Source: an uncultured Chitinophagales bacterium (lineage in GTDB: Bacteria > Bacteroidota > Ignavibacteria > UBA10030 > UBA6906). From it: DNA of 37,186 nt. Both the position numbers and the translations under genes were made by a program. This document shows positions 9,631 to 36,508 of the stretch, piece after piece (within the stretch, counting starts at the first letter, position 1; every line of letters starts with the position of its first letter). The notes beneath the pieces are model-generated. The model was not told the DNA's origin. It searched no databases and saw nothing but the letters and a program-made list of their open reading frames with translations. The stretch covers positions 1 to 37,186 of the forward strand of contig CAZJYO010000002.1 of the NCBI GenBank assembly GCA_964550275.1. Reading direction: 5' to 3'.

Positions 9631-12021
9631 ATGCAGACTGAAACCCATACAGAAGGAACCCACCACCAGCTTGATGCAATTCCCAAGCTGCTTCCCGTTC
9701 TGCCGTTGCGTGATGTTGTGGTGTATCCCTACATGATTTTCCCGGTGCTGGTTGGCCGCGATTCATCGCTACGCGCAGTGAATGAAGCCGTCGAGCGCGA
9801 AAAATATCTCTTCCTTGCCGCGCAGAAAAATCCCGGGACGGAAGAACCGGGCACGGACGACGTGTTCACCGAAGGCACGATTGCCAAGATTGTTCAGGTG
9901 CTCAAGCTCCCCAACGGCCTCATGAAAATTCTTGTGGATGGCGTTGTGCAGGCCAAAGTAAAGCGGTTTGTCCACGCGAAGTTTATGCAGGCGGAGGTGG
10001 AGATTACCTTCGAACCGGCCCCGGTGGATGCCGAACTCGACGCACTTCTCAGGCATACGTCCTCGCTGTTTGCCGAGTATGTTCACCTCAACAGGAATGT
10101 GCCGAGTGAAGTCCTTGTGGCGTTTGAGAACACCAAGGACCCGCGCCGCAAGGTGTTTTATATCGCTTCCAATATTCTTCAGAGCGTGGACGTGAAGCAG
10201 AAAGTGCTCCAGTTGACCAATATCCGCGAGCAGCTGCACGAGGTGATTCGCATTCTCAACGGGGAGAATGACGTCCTGAAGATTGAAAAGGAGATCGACA
10301 CCAAGGTTCACGATAATATCGCCCGCTCCCAGCGAAAGTATTTCATCCAGGAACAGATACGCATTCTTCAGGATGAGCTGGGTGACGACGAGGGCTCTCC
10401 CGAGCTTGCCAAACTCAAGGAAGAAATCAGGAAAGCGAAGATGCCCGCGCCGGTCGAAGAAAAGGCGATGGAAGAATTCAACAAGCTCAAGAAAACGCCG
10501 CCCCTCTCGCCCGAGTCAACCGTTATCCGGAGTTACCTCGATTGGATGATTTCTGTTCCGTGGGAAAAACACACGAAGGACAATCTCAACATTACCCACG
10601 TCAGGCAAATTCTTGATGAAGATCATTTTGGATTGGAGAAGCCGAAAGACAGGATCCTTGAACACATCGCAGTGTTGAATCTTGTCGAGGAAATGAAGGG
10701 GCAGATACTCTGTTTTGTCGGACCGCCCGGCGTGGGAAAAACATCGCTGGCAAAGTCCATCGCGCGCGGGCTCGGGCGAAAGTTTGTCCGTATCTCGCTT
10801 GGCGGCGTGCGCGACGAAGCGGAAATCCGCGGACACCGGCGCACCTACATCGGCGCGCTGCCCGGAAAGATTCTTCAATCGATGAAGAAAGCCGGCGTTA
10901 TTAACCCCGTACTGCTGCTGGATGAAGTGGACAAGATGAGCATGGATTTTCGCGGCGATCCGTCATCCGCGTTGCTGGAAGTGCTGGACCCCGAACAGAA
11001 CGTCGCCTTCAACGATCATTATCTCGATGTTGACTACGATCTTTCAAGCGTCATGTTTGTCACGACAGCAAATGTGCGGCACGCGATTCCTCTGCCATTA
11101 CAGGACAGAATGGAAATTATTGAATTGCCCGGCTACCTGATGCATGACAAGCGTGAGATTGCCCGAAGGCACATCATTCCGAAGCAGCTCAAGGAACACG
11201 GCCTCGAAAATGCAAAAGTGACGTTTGAGAATCAAGCTGTTGACCGCGTTATCAATGAGTACACTCGTGAAGCGGGCGTCCGCAATCTTGAGCGGGAGAT
11301 TGCCACCATTTGCAGAAAGGTTGCGCGGGATGTTGTTCTCTCACGACAGAAGAACGGAAAAAAATCCGCGCCGAAGCCGCTGGTTATTGACACTCAGAAA
11401 GTTGAAGGGTATCTTGGCGTACCGAAGTTCAGAAATCGCAAGAGACCGGAAACCCATCGCGTCGGCTCGGTTGCCGGACTTGCGTGGACGAGTGTGGGCG
11501 GCGAGATTCTCCAGGTTGATGCAACGGTGATGAAAGGTCAGGAGCGTTTACTTCTCACCGGTCAGCTTGGGGACGTCATGAAGGAATCCGCGCAGGCGGC
11601 GTTGAGTTATCTCCGATCAAATGCGAAGAAGCTGAAACTTGACCACGCGTCCTTTAAGGGGAAAGAGATCCACATCCATCTTCCGGAGGGCGCGATTCCC
11701 AAGGACGGACCTTCAGCCGGCATTACCATGGCATTGGCGATGTACTCGGCACTGAGCGGCAAGCCGTTGCGAGCCGATGTCGCCCTTACCGGAGAAATTA
11801 CACTGCGCGGCGAAGTTCTCGCCATCGGTGGATTGAACGAAAAACTTCTCGCGGCACAACGGAGTGACATGAAAAGGGTTCTGATCCCGCAGGAAAACAT
11901 GAAAGACCTCGCGGAAATCCCGGCGAAAGTGAAGGAAGGGCTGACCATCACGCCGGTAAAACGGATTGAAGACGCACTCAAGTATCTGCTGGTACAAGGC
12001 GGCCGTGCAAAATCAAAGTAA
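9631..12021 (+). CDS. lon: ATP-dependent Lon protease (endopeptidase La)
   Basis: 796 aa with an N-terminal LON domain, Walker A GPPGVGKTS, and catalytic PKDGPSAGITM plus a downstream Lys. Confidence 0.97.
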   Translation: MQTETHTEGTHHQLDAIPKLLPVLPLRDVVVYPYMIFPVLVGRDSSLRAVNEAVEREKYLFLAAQKNPGTEEPGTDDVFTEGTIAKIVQVLKLPNGLMKILVDGVVQAKVKRFVHAKFMQAEVEITFEPAPVDAELDALLRHTSSLFAEYVHLNRNVPSEVLVAFENTKDPRRKVFYIASNILQSVDVKQKVLQLTNIREQLHEVIRILNGENDVLKIEKEIDTKVHDNIARSQRKYFIQEQIRILQDELGDDEGSPELAKLKEEIRKAKMPAPVEEKAMEEFNKLKKTPPLSPESTVIRSYLDWMISVPWEKHTKDNLNITHVRQILDEDHFGLEKPKDRILEHIAVLNLVEEMKGQILCFVGPPGVGKTSLAKSIARGLGRKFVRISLGGVRDEAEIRGHRRTYIGALPGKILQSMKKAGVINPVLLLDEVDKMSMDFRGDPSSALLEVLDPEQNVAFNDHYLDVDYDLSSVMFVTTANVRHAIPLPLQDRMEIIELPGYLMHDKREIARRHIIPKQLKEHGLENAKVTFENQAVDRVINEYTREAGVRNLEREIATICRKVARDVVLSRQKNGKKSAPKPLVIDTQKVEGYLGVPKFRNRKRPETHRVGSVAGLAWTSVGGEILQVDATVMKGQERLLLTGQLGDVMKESAQAALSYLRSNAKKLKLDHASFKGKEIHIHLPEGAIPKDGPSAGITMALAMYSALSGKPLRADVALTGEITLRGEVLAIGGLNEKLLAAQRSDMKRVLIPQENMKDLAEIPAKVKEGLTITPVKRIEDALKYLLVQGGRAKSK

Positions 12022-12050
12022 TTGCTGAACCAACAAAGCGAACCCACCCC

Positions 12051-13742
12051 ATGAGCGATTTCATAGTTACCGCGCGCAAATGGCGCCCGCTGTTGTTCGA
12101 AGACGTCGCGGCACAGGACCATGTGACCACAACACTTCGCAACGCGATTGCCGCGAAACGGCTGGCACACGCGTATCTTTTCAGCGGTCCGCGTGGCGTT
12201 GGCAAGACAACAACAGCGCGCATCCTCGCAAAGGCCGTGAATTGTCTTCATCCTGTTGATAACAACCCGGATAACGAATGCAGTAACTGCCGCGAGATTA
12301 CTGAAGGACGCAGTTTTGATGTGCTGGAAATCGACGGCGCCTCCAACAGAGGCATCGAAGAGATGCGCAACCTTCGCGAAGCAGTCCGCTATGCGCCGAC
12401 GCAGGGAAGCTACAAGATTTACATCATTGATGAAGTACACATGCTTACCAAGGAAGCGTTCAATGCGCTTCTCAAAACGCTCGAAGAGCCGCCGCCGCAC
12501 GTGGTGTTCATCTTTGCGACCACCGAAATCCACAAGGTTCCCGCCACCATTCTTTCGCGCTGTCAGCGCTTTGAATTCCACCGCATTGCCATTGAGGAAA
12601 TCACCGGAAATCTCAAAGGCATTGCGGGCAAGGAAAAAATCACGATTGACGAAGACTCCCTGCTTCTTCTTGCAAAGAAAGCAGACGGATCCATGCGGGA
12701 TGCGCAGAGTCTTTTTGACCAGGCGGTTGCGCTTTGCGGGAAGAATGTAACACATCAGAAGCTTCTCGAAGCGCTCAACATTGTGGATCAGGAGTTGTAT
12801 TTCCGCGTGACGGACATGGTGAAGGCAAAAGATGCCGCAGCCGGACTCCAGCTTGTTGATGAGCTTGTCAGTAAGGGGCACGACCTTCGCGAGTTCCTCC
12901 ACGGACTAATCGAGCATCTTCGGAATATCCTCATTGCAAAGACGTCAAAATCCACAGAGCTGATCGAAGCATCAGAAAATTACAGGAAGCGTTACGGGAA
13001 AGAAGCGGAGACATTTTCCACCGCGGATATTCTCCGCTTGTTGCGCCATGTACAGGCGACGGAGAACGCGCTGAAGTACAGCTCGCAACCCCGTTACCGG
13101 CTTGAGGGGGATATTGTGCACATGATCACTACGCACACGGCCCCTGAAGTGGGTGAGCTTCTCCAGCAGATCGACGCGCTGAAAAAAAAACTCGATGAAC
13201 CACAGAAGCTGAATAGTCCTGGCAGCACTACGTATGTAAAGCCCGTTGTTTCCATCCCTGCTGACATGAAGCCGGCAGTAACGAAACCCGCCGCTGTCGT
13301 CAAGGAAGCAGAACCCTTTACACCGAAAAGCATCGCTCCTCAATCTTCCACGCCTGCAAGTCAGCCGCAACAGACAAAAATTATTGAAGGGGAAGTTTCT
13401 TCGCGATGGCCCGAGTTTGTGGGCGAGGTCAGGCGGCAGAGAATTTCTCTCGGCTCTGTTCTTGAGTCAGCATTGCTTCTTGGTGTTTCCGGATCGACAA
13501 TCCGTATTGGATGCGCGAATGATTTCCAGGCATCATCCATCACGCGGAACAAAGAGCTGATTCTTTCCATCATCAACCGGCTGTTCAACGCCAAGGCAAG
13601 AATCGAAGTGGAAATTACTTCCAGCCCGGGGACACTCCAACCCATGACGGGCAAACCCGAAGCGCCCGCCGCCACTGTTTCTGAAGAACACCCCGTTATT
13701 CAAGCGATGATTCGCGAGCTTGGCGCGGAACCGATGGGGTAA
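12051..13742 (+). CDS. dnaX: DNA polymerase III subunit gamma/tau
   Basis: YLFSGPRGVGKTTTARILAKAVNC, a Cys-rich zinc module (CxxC) and IIDEVHMLT. 563 aa. Confidence 0.97.
   Translation: MSDFIVTARKWRPLLFEDVAAQDHVTTTLRNAIAAKRLAHAYLFSGPRGVGKTTTARILAKAVNCLHPVDNNPDNECSNCREITEGRSFDVLEIDGASNRGIEEMRNLREAVRYAPTQGSYKIYIIDEVHMLTKEAFNALLKTLEEPPPHVVFIFATTEIHKVPATILSRCQRFEFHRIAIEEITGNLKGIAGKEKITIDEDSLLLLAKKADGSMRDAQSLFDQAVALCGKNVTHQKLLEALNIVDQELYFRVTDMVKAKDAAAGLQLVDELVSKGHDLREFLHGLIEHLRNILIAKTSKSTELIEASENYRKRYGKEAETFSTADILRLLRHVQATENALKYSSQPRYRLEGDIVHMITTHTAPEVGELLQQIDALKKKLDEPQKLNSPGSTTYVKPVVSIPADMKPAVTKPAAVVKEAEPFTPKSIAPQSSTPASQPQQTKIIEGEVSSRWPEFVGEVRRQRISLGSVLESALLLGVSGSTIRIGCANDFQASSITRNKELILSIINRLFNAKARIEVEITSSPGTLQPMTGKPEAPAATVSEEHPVIQAMIRELGAEPMG
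13182..13198 (+). promoter_or_regulatory. Candidate dnaX recoding site (A9 run with an immediate -1 frame stop)
   Basis: Codons 378-380 are AAA AAA AAA. The -1 frame then reads ACT CGA TGA. The +1 frame reads TCG ATG AAC CAC AGA AGC TGA. Confidence 0.55.
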
Positions 13743-13773
13743 TCAAAGCTGGTCCGCTTCTCACGCGCGGGCT

Positions 13774-13972
13774 CAACACCGACCTTTGGCAATGCCATCC
13801 CTTCGGGAAAGGTCGGTGTTGGACGATGCACCCCAAAGTAGATAGTGTCTCAGCAGCCGAGACATTACCCAAGTACCCTGACTTTCCCCTCGGTCGTCAC
13901 GAACCATTTCGTGACGGAAGCTGTTTTCCAGGCTTGAGCGGCTTGGTCACCAAGTGGTTGTTGACCGCCGAG
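13774..13972 (+). other. Structured non-coding region with four hairpins (function unknown, possible small RNA or processing/termination element)
   Basis: Hairpin 1 is a perfect 14-bp stem at 13774-13787/13808-13821, with a C(UUCG)G-like tip inside its loop. Hairpin 2 is a 6-bp stem at 13846-13864. Hairpin 3 is a 9-bp stem with a 4-nt loop at 13895-13916. Hairpin 4 is an imperfect stem at 13939-13970. No ORF of any size lies here. Confidence 0.45.
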
Positions 13973-14061
13973 CAAAGATCCGCACTGGGCCAAGAGCCAC
14001 CTTGACTTTCACCCCCCCTTTCCCGACTTTTTTATGTGATCATGCAAGAATGGAGAGGGAG

Positions 14062-15085
14062 AATGCGCAATAGTCTTGTTGCTGCTCTGTTGATTTCAAC
14101 CAACGCTGTGGCGGGAACGGGCGTTGCGAAATATGCCGGCGAATTTATGTCGCTCGGCGTCGGCGGCCGGGCTCTCGGAATGGGTGGAGCGTATGTTGCC
14201 CTCGCAAACGATGTCACTGCCGGCTACTGGAATCCCGCAGGACTCGCCTTCATCACGTACCCCCAAATCGCGCTCATGCATGACGAGCAGTTCGGTAGTC
14301 TCGTGAACTATGACTACGGCGCGGCCGCCATGCCCCTCGGTTCCTCTTCCAGTCTCGGTCTCAGCGTGATGCGTCTCGGCGTTGATGATATTCCCGACAC
14401 GCGCAACGCGGGCGTTGATATCAACGGCAACGTCACACACGATCCCAATGAGTTCAGCCGGATTGACCCGAACCGCGTAACCTATTTCAACGCGGCGGAT
14501 TGGGCGTTTTATCTCACCTATGCAAAGAAAGCGTCGGATGAGTTTTCCTACGGTGCGAACGTAAAGCTCATTAGGCGCGACCTTGGGGATAATGGGGCGA
14601 CGGGTGTCGGCTTTGACGTCGGCCTTTGGTACACGCCGATGGAAAATCTCCTGCTCGGTGCAAATGTCCAGGATGTTACCACAACATTCCTCGCGTGGGA
14701 CACAGGAACGAATGAACTCATTTCTCCCACAATGAAAGTCGGCTCAGCATATCTCATTGATGCGTGGGAAGGAAGGTTTGCACCTGCGCTTGATTTTGAT
14801 ATACGGTTTGAAAACAGACAATACGCCTCCACGTTTAATCTTGGTCCCGTGAGTTTCGACATGCACGCGGGACTTGAGTACCAGCTTCGCGATCTTGTTG
14901 CGCTTCGTGTCGGTTACAGCGACGTGAAGCAAGTAACCTTGGGAGCCGGACTTCACCTTCCCAAGTTGAACATCGACTATTCCTTTGCCAAGTTTGACGG
15001 CATCGATCAGCTTGGCAGTACGCACCGCATTTCCCTCATGTTTACTCTCGAGGCCGAGCAATTCAAGCGCGTCCCCGAACAGTAA
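14062..15085 (+). CDS. PorV/PorQ family outer-membrane beta-barrel protein (T9SS-associated family)
   Basis: GEFMSLGVGGRALGMGGAYVALANDVTAGYWNPAGLA is the family signature. The signal peptide is MRNSLVAALLISTNAVAG. GGAG lies 7 nt upstream of the ATG at 14062. The ORF track starts at GTG 14036. Confidence 0.8.
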
Positions 15086-33790: not shown

Positions 33791-35020
33791 TCAAAATTGA
33801 CTCGTATCCCGCCCGAATATGCGTGCTCTGATCCAATCCGTCAACACGGAGAATTTGTTTCTGAAACTGACAATTCTGGAAAGATACGCGGACCGCCAGA
33901 AAAGCCATGTTGTCCACCCCTTGCCTTTATACGTATTAAGGTCGGCAAGAGCACGATTGTTCCCGATGTATGCGAGCATGCCAAGATGAGTGTAAGCGAA
34001 CGGCTCAACGTTCCCGCCGCGTGCATGCGCATTCAAACATTTTCCGAGGTATTTTCCCTGTTGTTGCGCAACCTGTGCCGTGGCAGGAAGCGGTGCATTC
34101 TCGACAACACTACAATCTCCGATCGCGTAAATGCTGTTGTTGCTTTTGGCGCGAAAGAAGCTGTCGACAACAATCCTCCCCTGCTTGTCTTTCTCGAGCG
34201 GAATGTTCTTCACAAACGACACCGGGGCATTTCCCGCTGCCCAAAGCAGCAAGCCGTAATGAATTATTGAATCGTCCGCAAGGGTAAGCGACCGCTCATC
34301 CACGCGTGTTACCGGTGACTTTGCAAGAATACGAATACGTTGACGCCGAAAGATTTCCGTTGCGTAGCGGCGGAGCTTCTCATCAAATGTGCCGAGGATT
34401 TCATTTCCGGCCTCGACAATACTGATGCCGACATCAGCCGAAAGATGAGGATATAACTCCTGCAGGTCATCAAGAAGGAAATCATTTAACTCGGCTGCGA
34501 ATTCGACGCCGGTTGGCCCGCCGCCACAGACGACGAAATGCAGAAGCCGCTGTCGCTCCGCAACGGGAACCCCCGGAAGCGATGCCTGCTCAAAGTTCTT
34601 GATGATTCTTTGACGAAGAATGCTTGCATCACGAAGTTCTTTCAAGAAGAGCGCGTGCCCGGCAACGCCGGGAATGCCGTAGTCATTCGGCATTGCCCCG
34701 ACGGCAATCACGAGAATGCCATACGGCACATCGAATGCCCGCTGATTGGTTGCGCCTTTGCAGTGAACGATCCTCGTGGCAACATCAACCGATTCTGCCG
34801 ACGCATGAAAGAACCGGATGCCTTTGTTAGCGTCGCGTATGGGTTCAATGATACTGCGAAACTCGATGGTGCCTACCGCGGTGCTTGGCAACAGCGGCGT
34901 GAACAGAAAATGGTTGCGCGGACTGACAACGGTGACGTCATAGCCTGACCGAAGATGCTTGATCAGGTTGAACGCTCCGAAGCCGGTTCCCAGAATCAGG
35001 AGTTGTTGCAGTGACGGCAT
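33791..35020 (-). CDS. ndh: Type II NADH:quinone oxidoreductase (NDH-2), FAD/NAD(P)-binding
   Basis: LLILGTGFGAF...VVSPRNHFLFTPLLPS and a second dinucleotide fold VVCGGGPTGVEFAAEL, then IYAIGDC. Confidence 0.88.
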   Translation of the reverse strand: MPSLQQLLILGTGFGAFNLIKHLRSGYDVTVVSPRNHFLFTPLLPSTAVGTIEFRSIIEPIRDANKGIRFFHASAESVDVATRIVHCKGATNQRAFDVPYGILVIAVGAMPNDYGIPGVAGHALFLKELRDASILRQRIIKNFEQASLPGVPVAERQRLLHFVVCGGGPTGVEFAAELNDFLLDDLQELYPHLSADVGISIVEAGNEILGTFDEKLRRYATEIFRRQRIRILAKSPVTRVDERSLTLADDSIIHYGLLLWAAGNAPVSFVKNIPLEKDKQGRIVVDSFFRAKSNNSIYAIGDCSVVENAPLPATAQVAQQQGKYLGKCLNAHARGGNVEPFAYTHLGMLAYIGNNRALADLNTYKGKGWTTWLFWRSAYLSRIVSFRNKFSVLTDWIRARIFGRDTSQF

Positions 35021-35028
35021 GGCATCTC

Positions 35029-35059
35029 AAAAAAAAACCTGACGCCCACACGCCAGGTT
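35029..35059 (-). terminator. Rho-independent terminator after the TPR gene, abutting the ndh start
   Basis: On the minus strand, aacctg-N12-caggtt followed by a run of T. The T tract ends 8 nt before the ndh ATG. Confidence 0.6.
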
Positions 35060-35086: not shown

Positions 35087-36508
35087 CTACCCGCGGATAA
35101 GATTCTTAAACTCCTTGATGGAACGAACACCCGGAAACTCCTGCTCGAAGGTTGCCTTCTTCTCCGGGTCAATCAGAAATGCACTTCGGAGCGCGTCTAT
35201 AGCTTCGAGTGTTCTGTTCAGGACCATGAGCACTTTTGCTTTGCTGTACATCGCGTCCGCGCAAGAGGGTTGTGCTTCTAATGCATGTTCAAATGCCCGC
35301 AGTGATTGTCGGAAGTAGCGTAGCTCGAACAGCGTGTCGCCATAGTCAAGCCAGGCACCATGATTCATTGGCTCAAGTTTGGTCACCACGCGATAACTGA
35401 GAAGAGATTCGCGCAACCGGCCCATGTTATACAGGAGGTCTGCCTTGGCGTACCAAAGCTCCGGATAGTCCTTGCACAGCGTAATTGCCTTGTTGTAATC
35501 GGTTAACGCCTTGCGGTGTTGATTCAGGGAATCATAGCAACTCCCGCGACCGAAGAAAGACTCATAATGGTCCGGATCAACCTTGATTGCCTGGCCGAAG
35601 CACCGTATCGCTTCCTCGTATTCACCGAGTTCTTCAAATGCATTCCCCAAATTGTGCCATGCGGGCACGTCCTTTTCATCCAGTGTAAGTGCTTCGCGGT
35701 AGCAGGCAATCGCATCATGCAATCTGCCCATATTGGCGTACGCGTTGCCTTTGTTGTACCACGCGGCCGGGAAGTTTTCATGGATGGCGAGCGCCGTTTC
35801 GTAGCTTTCAATTGCTCGCGCGTATTGAAACATACGGTTGAGCACTATGCCGCGGTTGTACCACGCGTTGTAGTTGTACGGGTCAAGCGAAAGGTGGTCA
35901 TCGTAGCACTGGAGTGATTCCTCGGGTTTTTCAAGGTAGTCGAAGCAATATCCCAGTTCGTACCATGCGTCCCGGTGGTGCGGGTTCCCATCCAAAATGA
36001 ACCTGAAGATGGCAATGGCTTCCTCGTAGCGCCCTACTTTTTCATAACTGATGGCTTTGTTAAAGAGCGCATCTTCATTTGTCGGGTCGACCTCAAGAGC
36101 ACGCTCAAAACTGGCAAGCGCATCCTCGGTACTGCCCAGATCATCCAGCGCAATGCCCCGGTTCACAAGGGTCTCCGGGTCAACGGGGTTTAATTCGAGC
36201 GACTTGTTGTAGCACTCGACCGCTTCTTCATACTTGTAGAGATTGCTGAAAATAAGCCCCTGACGCTGCCAGGCATCGGCACTGTAGGGAACGAGGGTCA
36301 ACAACTGTTGGCTGAAATGGAGGGCGTCTTCGTACTTTTCATGCTCGACGTAGTATGCGATAATCTCTTCGAGCGCTTCAGTATTGGTGATGCTTCGCGG
36401 TCCATCCTTCATCATGTCCTGATACTTTTGCAACCCGTCTTCGAAGCGTTCCTTCCCCTCGTCTTCCGGCTCGTCATCAAACCCGCCGCTGAAATCAAGA
36501 GTACTCAT
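35087..36508 (-). CDS. Cytoplasmic tetratricopeptide repeat protein
   Basis: 473 aa with an acidic N-terminus and no signal peptide. About 12 canonical TPR units (AWYNKGNAYANMGRLHDAIACYREALTLD and similar). Confidence 0.85.
   Translation of the reverse strand: MSTLDFSGGFDDEPEDEGKERFEDGLQKYQDMMKDGPRSITNTEALEEIIAYYVEHEKYEDALHFSQQLLTLVPYSADAWQRQGLIFSNLYKYEEAVECYNKSLELNPVDPETLVNRGIALDDLGSTEDALASFERALEVDPTNEDALFNKAISYEKVGRYEEAIAIFRFILDGNPHHRDAWYELGYCFDYLEKPEESLQCYDDHLSLDPYNYNAWYNRGIVLNRMFQYARAIESYETALAIHENFPAAWYNKGNAYANMGRLHDAIACYREALTLDEKDVPAWHNLGNAFEELGEYEEAIRCFGQAIKVDPDHYESFFGRGSCYDSLNQHRKALTDYNKAITLCKDYPELWYAKADLLYNMGRLRESLLSYRVVTKLEPMNHGAWLDYGDTLFELRYFRQSLRAFEHALEAQPSCADAMYSKAKVLMVLNRTLEAIDALRSAFLIDPEKKATFEQEFPGVRSIKEFKNLIRG

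Follow-up and report, generated by a model that had tools for sequence, protein, structure and literature searches.

Background

In several bacteria the dnaX gene gives rise to both a long protein (tau) and a short one (gamma), and the manner in which this is achieved is not the same in each. In Thermus thermophilus it is transcriptional slippage at a run of nine A's (A9) that yields gamma and tau in a 1:1 ratio (Larsen et al. 2000 PNAS 97:1683, as related in PMC1088944 and PMC5009743), and PMC5009743 describes Thermus dnaX transcripts that carry extra bases. Here we consider the dnaX gene of an uncultured Ignavibacteria-like bacterium, which lies on a stretch of 37,186 nucleotides (nt), hereafter the window (contig CAZJYO010000002.1 of assembly GCA_964550275.1, positions 1 to 37,186). 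Judged from its position and conservation, a run of nine A's within dnaX very probably allows one gene to yield two proteins, the short gamma and the long tau.

Slippage is not the only way in which gamma is known to be made. In Escherichia coli it results from a -1 ribosomal frameshift on A_AAA_AAG, which is preceded at ~10 nt by a Shine-Dalgarno-like (SD-like) element and followed by a stem-loop (PMC3711429 Fig. 1; PMC5009743). A further arrangement is that of the dnaX genes of Chlorobium, Flavobacterium, Cytophaga and Coraliomargarita, which are split into two open reading frames (ORFs) at A10 and have been termed 'reversed' (Antonov et al. 2013, PMC3711429, Suppl. Fig. S3). Caulobacter crescentus also obtains a short gamma from the gene for tau, but its DnaX is processed by ClpXP (bioRxiv 10.1101/2022.11.10.516041), a post-translational proteolysis for which no slippery run is needed; the data from the window speak neither for nor against processing of this type.

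It is the Thermus gene that the dnaX of the window resembles most fully, with tau encoded in a single ORF, a sense-strand A9 downstream of the clamp-loader core, a stop close by in each alternative frame, no stimulators of ribosomal frameshifting and both gamma and tau as predicted products. The two differ in phylum, the window being Ignavibacteria-like and thus of the Fibrobacteres-Chlorobi-Bacteroidetes (FCB) group, and in that slippage has been demonstrated in Thermus and is predicted here. The superphylum, the position in the gene and the poly-A motif are all shared with the two-ORF genes; however, in those the zero frame stops at the run and tau lies in the -1 frame, whereas in the window the zero frame gives tau and the shifted frames would give gamma. 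With E. coli the likeness is one of outcome, a gamma lacking the C-terminal domains of tau, together with a -1 stop directly after a lysine-rich slippery sequence. Unlike the E. coli site, that of the window has a heptamer ending in A, is held at nine or more A's, lacks a stem-loop, an SD-like element and an Rfam match, and lies, with respect to the protein domains, ~50 codons nearer the start of the gene. Slippage of this kind has been described in Thermus and predicted in related phyla; the dnaX of the window is probably a further case of it, not a new mechanism.

The single-ORF arrangement does not appear in PMC3711429 because programs that detect frameshifts cannot find single-ORF genes, and truncating slippage sites of such a kind are hard to detect by comparative analysis (Baranov et al. 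2005, PMC1088944). That difficulty may be the reason that the in-frame form of the FCB group is absent from the dnaX papers cited here.

The A9 run and its predicted products

The gene is a dnaX orthologue; its product scores above the cut-offs of both TIGR02397 (455 bits against 250) and PRK05563 (515 bits against 400), and that of the related locus L161 is of equal length and 85% identical to it. Residues 4-362 align nearly one-to-one with residues 3-360 of E. coli DnaX, for which clamp-loader structures have been solved (e.g. 1jr3, 3glh). Codon 378, of which 13182 is the first base, is equivalent to about residue 376 of the E. coli protein, just past the gamma 1-373 core of the pentameric loader in 1jr3. 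The run starts there, 4 codons past the end of domain III (aa 373), and so the original prediction, made from the bare sequence, was right to place the site after the clamp-loader core. Its addition that gamma ends here in other bacteria agrees with the gamma 1-373 construct used for crystallisation and fails for E. coli gamma itself (431 aa, chain 8giy_B), which ends ~50 residues beyond the gamma predicted here. A product ending at the run would be a minimal gamma, essentially domains I-III.

The run itself reads AAA AAA AAA, for three lysines, in codons 378-380 of 563. It sits within tgAAAAAAAAActcgatgaa (13180-13199), or by codon GCG CTG AAA AAA AAA CTC GAT GAA (13176-13199), and includes the in-phase heptamer A_AAA_AAA, the last base of which is A and not G. 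Both alternative frames meet a TGA shortly afterwards. The stop in the -1 frame ends 8 nt past the A9, which would give a gamma of 382 aa and 43.0 kDa with the C-terminus ...LKKKTR, and that in the +1 frame ends 22 nt past it, with a predicted variant of 386 aa and 43.4 kDa terminating in ...LKKNSMNHRS. Tau is encoded in one uninterrupted ORF, the zero frame having no stop before that at 13740-13742, 552 nt on from the A9. The place of the run at nt 13182-13190, the immediate stops in both frames and the two peptide tails had all been reported at the outset, and every coordinate and tail was found to be correct.

It was also said then that this is the only 9-nt homopolymer within a coding sequence of the window, and this holds, as the one other A9 (35029-35037) is intergenic. 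That second tract lies in a 66-nt gap between the minus-strand ORFs 33791..35020 and 35087..36508 and is a T9 tract on the coding strand of its flanking genes. By count alone the run in dnaX is unremarkable, with four A8 matches observed in the window against 3.3 expected in shuffles; it is where the run lies and how well it is conserved that make it significant.

The nine A's exist in the DNA and are no assembly error, because contigs that span them without an indel have been assembled in independent studies. Logan contigs of four metagenome runs from three studies, one from a bioreactor (X1), one from sand (X2) and two from wetland in a single study (X3, X5), all carry A9. RNA runs were searched with the whole gene and with the 191 nt that surround the A9; the single run that matches dnaX is of unknown kind, and its contigs end at 13164, short of the A9. 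No RNA runs were listed for L037, a Leptospira-labelled relative bearing two runs of A9. Minority variants in the length of the run would also be hidden in Logan contigs.

Conservation in the clade of the window

In a protein search 120 clusters came up with 57-85% identity; those that carry a name are labelled as metagenome-assembled genomes of Ignavibacteria, Ignavibacteriae or Bacteroidota. DNA was obtained for ten of these clusters, to which L001, L002, L081 and L085 were added from scans of genome and metagenome contigs. At the aligned site the proteins have KKK in 107 cases, KKN in six and another peptide in seven. At the level of DNA, A9 or A10 is present in 11 of the 13 clade members that could be read, and in L081 and L002 as well. 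Wherever the DNA encodes KKK it does so as AAA AAA AAA, with L164 reaching A10 through the following ATC codon. In the eight KKK genes whose codons were compared, 24 of 24 lysine codons at the site are AAA, as against 42% of lysine codons elsewhere in those genes (binomial P ~1e-9); over all long ORFs of the window the frequency of AAA is 0.43.

The codon that precedes the run is free to vary (CTG, TTG, TTA, ATG, TGG) and the number of A's is kept by other means where the peptide changes. A KKN member reads TTA AAA AAA AAT, which makes exactly nine A's with one borrowed from the last base of the leucine codon. L002 reads CTA AAA AAA AAG, in which exactly nine A's are rebuilt in a shifted codon phase and the canonical A_AAA_AAG is carried in phase. 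A stop in the -1 frame is found 6-14 nt past the run in 13 of 13 run-bearing genes (the clade and its two nearest neighbours), and the zero-frame residues that overlie it are not constant (DE, SE, PE, DK, HD, PD). These patterns indicate that nucleotide-level selection acts on the A9 run in the clade of the window, and show that the -1 stop is likewise conserved as nucleotides.

The run in a wider sample of dnaX genes

The comparison was extended to 160 dnaX loci from genome and metagenome contigs, with the hinge defined as codons 330-450. Runs of at least A9 number 46 in the hinge, or 0.81 per kb, whereas A or T runs of nine or more occur elsewhere in the same loci at 0.020 per kb, an enrichment of ~41-fold; domains I-III have no run of at least A9 in any of the 160. 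The longest A-run in the hinge of each locus has a bimodal distribution with a trough at eight, there being 15 loci with A6, 13 with A7, 4 with A8, 14 with A9, 28 with A10 and 2 with A11. Among single-ORF genes 95% have a -1 stop no more than 15 nt from the run, as against 25% at random positions of the same genes, and 90% have a +1 stop no more than 30 nt from it, as against 45%; in the controls the median stop distance is 35 nt. All three codon phases are used by the single-ORF runs (20/15/12) and the peptides encoded vary (KKK, EKKK, QKKN, EKKN, LKKK, VKKK); therefore what is invariant is the presence of nine or more A's in the DNA, and not the peptide or a heptamer of fixed phase.

When domains I-III were placed on a tree (168 rows, FastTree), the runs clustered strongly, with 17 changes required where shuffled labels required 45. 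They are borne on the Bacteroidota/Chlorobi branch, on Ignavibacteria branches and in the clade of the window; none occurs in the Nitrospira group or in any of the 44 rows of the branch to which the Firmicutes-labelled loci belong. Five genes (L040, L047, L077, L124, L141) are of the two-ORF type, with tau in the -1 frame after A10 or A11, as against 47 of the single-ORF type, and the five are nested among single-ORF relatives in such a way that at least three changes are needed. It is quite possible, although we put this forward tentatively, that the single-ORF gene with A9 or A10 is both the commonest and, probably, the ancestral state of dnaX in the Bacteroidota-Chlorobi-Ignavibacteria superphylum, with repeated one-base flips between tau in frame and gamma in frame. 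If this were so, slippage in these phyla would have a frequency near 50%, and the usual gamma there would be a minimal one that ends a few residues past domain III.

It had been held that the loss of the A-run and of the out-of-frame stops from close relatives would speak against recoding; relatives both close and distant keep them. The inferred gamma of about 382-386 aa beside the 563-aa tau is thus supported by a conserved run and conserved stops. The dnaX of the window should then be annotated with two products, tau and gamma, and the solution seen in Thermus would extend to an uncultured Ignavibacteria-like lineage. More widely, the in-frame poly-A dnaX is common in the FCB group and invisible to surveys that look for broken frames. 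The genes sampled, with A9 or A10, tau in or out of frame and in some cases the run lost, form a natural series for asking why bacteria retain gamma.

A10 runs were also seen much further downstream, at dnaX codons ~515-567, in L042, L054 and L061 (Trichlorobacter-, Nitrospirales- and deltaproteobacterium-labelled), with a -1 stop 5-11 nt away, and these may be recoding sites at another position in dnaX.

Search for stimulators of frameshifting

The elements that accompany the E. coli shift were looked for around the run. The 60 nt that follow it (13191-13250) fold at -5.3 kcal/mol (z=+2.14), a stability equalled or bettered by 199 of 200 shuffles, and in segments of 60-111 nt about the A9, too, every fold is weaker than in shuffles. 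A candidate set of pairings in which the run would lie in the loop (AUCGA/UCGAU with GCUUCUC/CAGAAGC, 13156-13209) was dropped as no better than shuffles (z=+1.5). Upstream, in CAGCAGATCGACGCGCTG, there is no GGAGG-like or purine-rich SD-like element within ~20 nt of the run, the nearest SD-like candidate being GGGTGAG (13151-13157), which is ~25 nt off and encodes a conserved V-G-E. Rfam gave no match at E<=0.1 in 12900-14200, the DnaX frameshift element included, and no terminator-like hairpin occurs near the A9, the only one in 12900-14100 being that at 13894-13917, ~700 nt past the run. The A9 site thus has all of the sequence-level features of the Thermus type and lacks the stimulators of the E. 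coli type.

Probable slippage and its alternatives

We consider it likely that the A9 is a programmed recoding site at which Thermus-type transcriptional slippage gives a gamma of ~43 kDa as well as a tau of 62 kDa. Of the two mechanisms that the original prediction had offered side by side, it is the Thermus type that is favoured, since the stimulators of the E. coli type are missing. On the nine-base rA:dT hybrid RNA polymerase would realign the nascent RNA, and messages with A9, A10, A11 or A8 would result. Those with A9 (or A12) would encode the full-length tau of 563 aa, with domains I-III, the linker and DnaX_C; in those with one extra A ribosomes would enter the -1 frame and stop two codons later, giving the 382-aa gamma; and those with A8 or A11 would lead to a stop after seven codons and a product of 386 aa. 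From the sequence comparisons we infer that slippage occurs, that it would do so at transcription and not at translation, and that the short product would act as gamma in the clamp loader.

The same 382-aa gamma would be produced from a homogeneous A9 mRNA by a -1 programmed ribosomal frameshift or by sliding of the ribosome on consecutive AAA codons. There is a precedent in the dnaX of E. coli (PMC5009743), and the in-phase A_AAA_AAA of the window, the in-phase A_AAA_AAG of L002 and a -1 stop that is tightly kept in the clade when the +1 stop is not would all suit it. We nevertheless regard such a shift as unlikely, and equally so the step through which it would proceed, in which the tRNA-Lys slips one base back on A_AAA_AAA and termination follows at the TGA (13196-13198). 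The stem-loop, SD-like element and Rfam match that might support it are missing, A_AAA_AAA is reported to be far less shift-prone than A_AAA_AAG in E. coli (PMC5009743), and seven A's would be enough for it, yet selection holds nine or more, with the trough at eight and with nine A's restored across codon boundaries by compensation. Slippage is the better fit to both this threshold and this compensation, as it is to stops being enriched in the two shifted frames across phyla and to the repeated flips between single-ORF and two-ORF genes, and nested two-ORF genes are what would be expected if slippage were efficient (PMC5009743). Nine nucleotides is also the length of the run on which Thermus dnaX slips (PMC1088944, PMC5009743), and in many bacterial genomes A/T runs begin to be visibly selected against at that length (PMC1088944). 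Some observations do weigh against transcriptional slippage as the whole account. The +1 stop is only weakly conserved in the clade of the window, being found anywhere from 18 to 331 nt past the run, and this is the chief point in favour of a pure -1 event, although it fits slippage dominated by the insertion of a single A equally well. The in-phase A_AAA_AAA allows a ribosomal contribution. The run has been lost in L168 (KAK, GC content 56%) and L169 (RQQ, GC content 63%), where the hinge has no A or T run of six or more and no evident substitute, and therefore gamma made by this route is dispensable, or is made differently, in some relatives; these two are natural comparators and possibly make tau only.

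It could also be supposed that no functional recoding takes place, that KKK is a conserved structural motif ending a helix of domain III in which the AAA codons are incidental, and that any slippage is tolerated noise. The L-KKK-L peptide is indeed the one kept in the 107 clade proteins, a run of at least A8 is expected in the window by count alone, and two clade members manage without the run. A structural motif alone does not account for the exclusive use of AAA at the site against the background of 42%, for an A9 that survives the change of peptide to KKN, for runs of at least A9 in all three phases and with different peptides across phyla at 41-fold enrichment, or for the conserved -1 stops, and 9-nt A/T runs are generally selected against in coding DNA (PMC1088944), all of which makes this explanation improbable. 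Far less credible still is the idea that the A9 is an artefact of sequencing or assembly, or a phase-variable tract at which slipped-strand mispairing toggles dnaX on and off. Homopolymers are admittedly prone to sequencing errors and hypermutable in replication (PMC1088944), but the DNA contigs of the four runs in three studies all show A9 with no indel, and both ideas were rejected on these. Moreover, tau is in frame in every single-ORF relative. As dnaX is an essential gene, switching it on and off is implausible in any case.

Features of the gene and its surroundings

The coordinates of the gene, its domains and the recoding site are collected in Table 1. The linker that would be confined to tau (aa 381-447) has no domain match in a search of Pfam profiles. 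The DnaX_C match that follows it has E=0.001 and 19.5 bits, below the cut-off of 26.2, and extends over profile positions 10-112 of 113; DnaX_C is listed as a weak match for relatives too.

Table 1. Features of dnaX in the window and of the two run-less relatives; positions are those of the window unless given in amino acids (aa) or with a locus name
Feature	Position	Strand	Basis or remarks
dnaX ORF	12051..13742	+	Full-length product tau, 563 aa, 62.2 kDa; Pfam and NCBIfam equivalogs, L161 orthologue
Clamp-loader core, domains I-III (aa 1-373)	12051..13169	+	Common to tau and predicted gamma
DNA_pol3_delta2	aa 22-178	+	Pfam match in dnaX product
DNAX_ATPase_lid	aa 184-230	+	Pfam match in dnaX product
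DNA_pol3_gamma3 (domain III)	aa 240-373	+	Pfam match in dnaX product
A9 slippery run, codons 378-380, AAA AAA AAA (KKK)	13182..13190	+	Sequence
TGA stop, -1 frame	13196..13198	+	Translation ...EKKTR*; reached via one extra A or a -1 ribosomal shift
TGA stop, +1 frame	13210..13212	+	Translation KKNSMNHRS*; reached via one A fewer or two extra
Tau-only linker rich in Pro/Ser/Thr (aa 381-447)	13191..13391	+	Translation
Tau-only C-terminal domain (aa 448-546), weak DnaX_C match	13392..13688	+	Pfam PF20964
dnaX of L168	L168:1001-2638		Run-less clade member
dnaX of L169	L169:1001-2638		Run-less clade member

The gap that follows dnaX (13743-14035) has 290 nt of non-coding DNA with no Rfam match (E<=0.1), and it is here that the hairpin at 13894-13917 lies, followed by a T-rich tail. 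A search of the whole 37,186-nt window for tRNA genes found none. The gene order lon - dnaX - UPF0164/PorV-like gene (window 9631-15085) is kept in most of the clade relatives (L161-L170), with a peptidase S9/DLH gene in place of lon upstream of dnaX in L164 and L166. In L170 (L170:1-853) lon, which lies upstream of dnaX, is split by the gene calls into two pieces of 663 aa and 186 aa, the second with Lon_C, which may reflect a frameshift or an assembly error.

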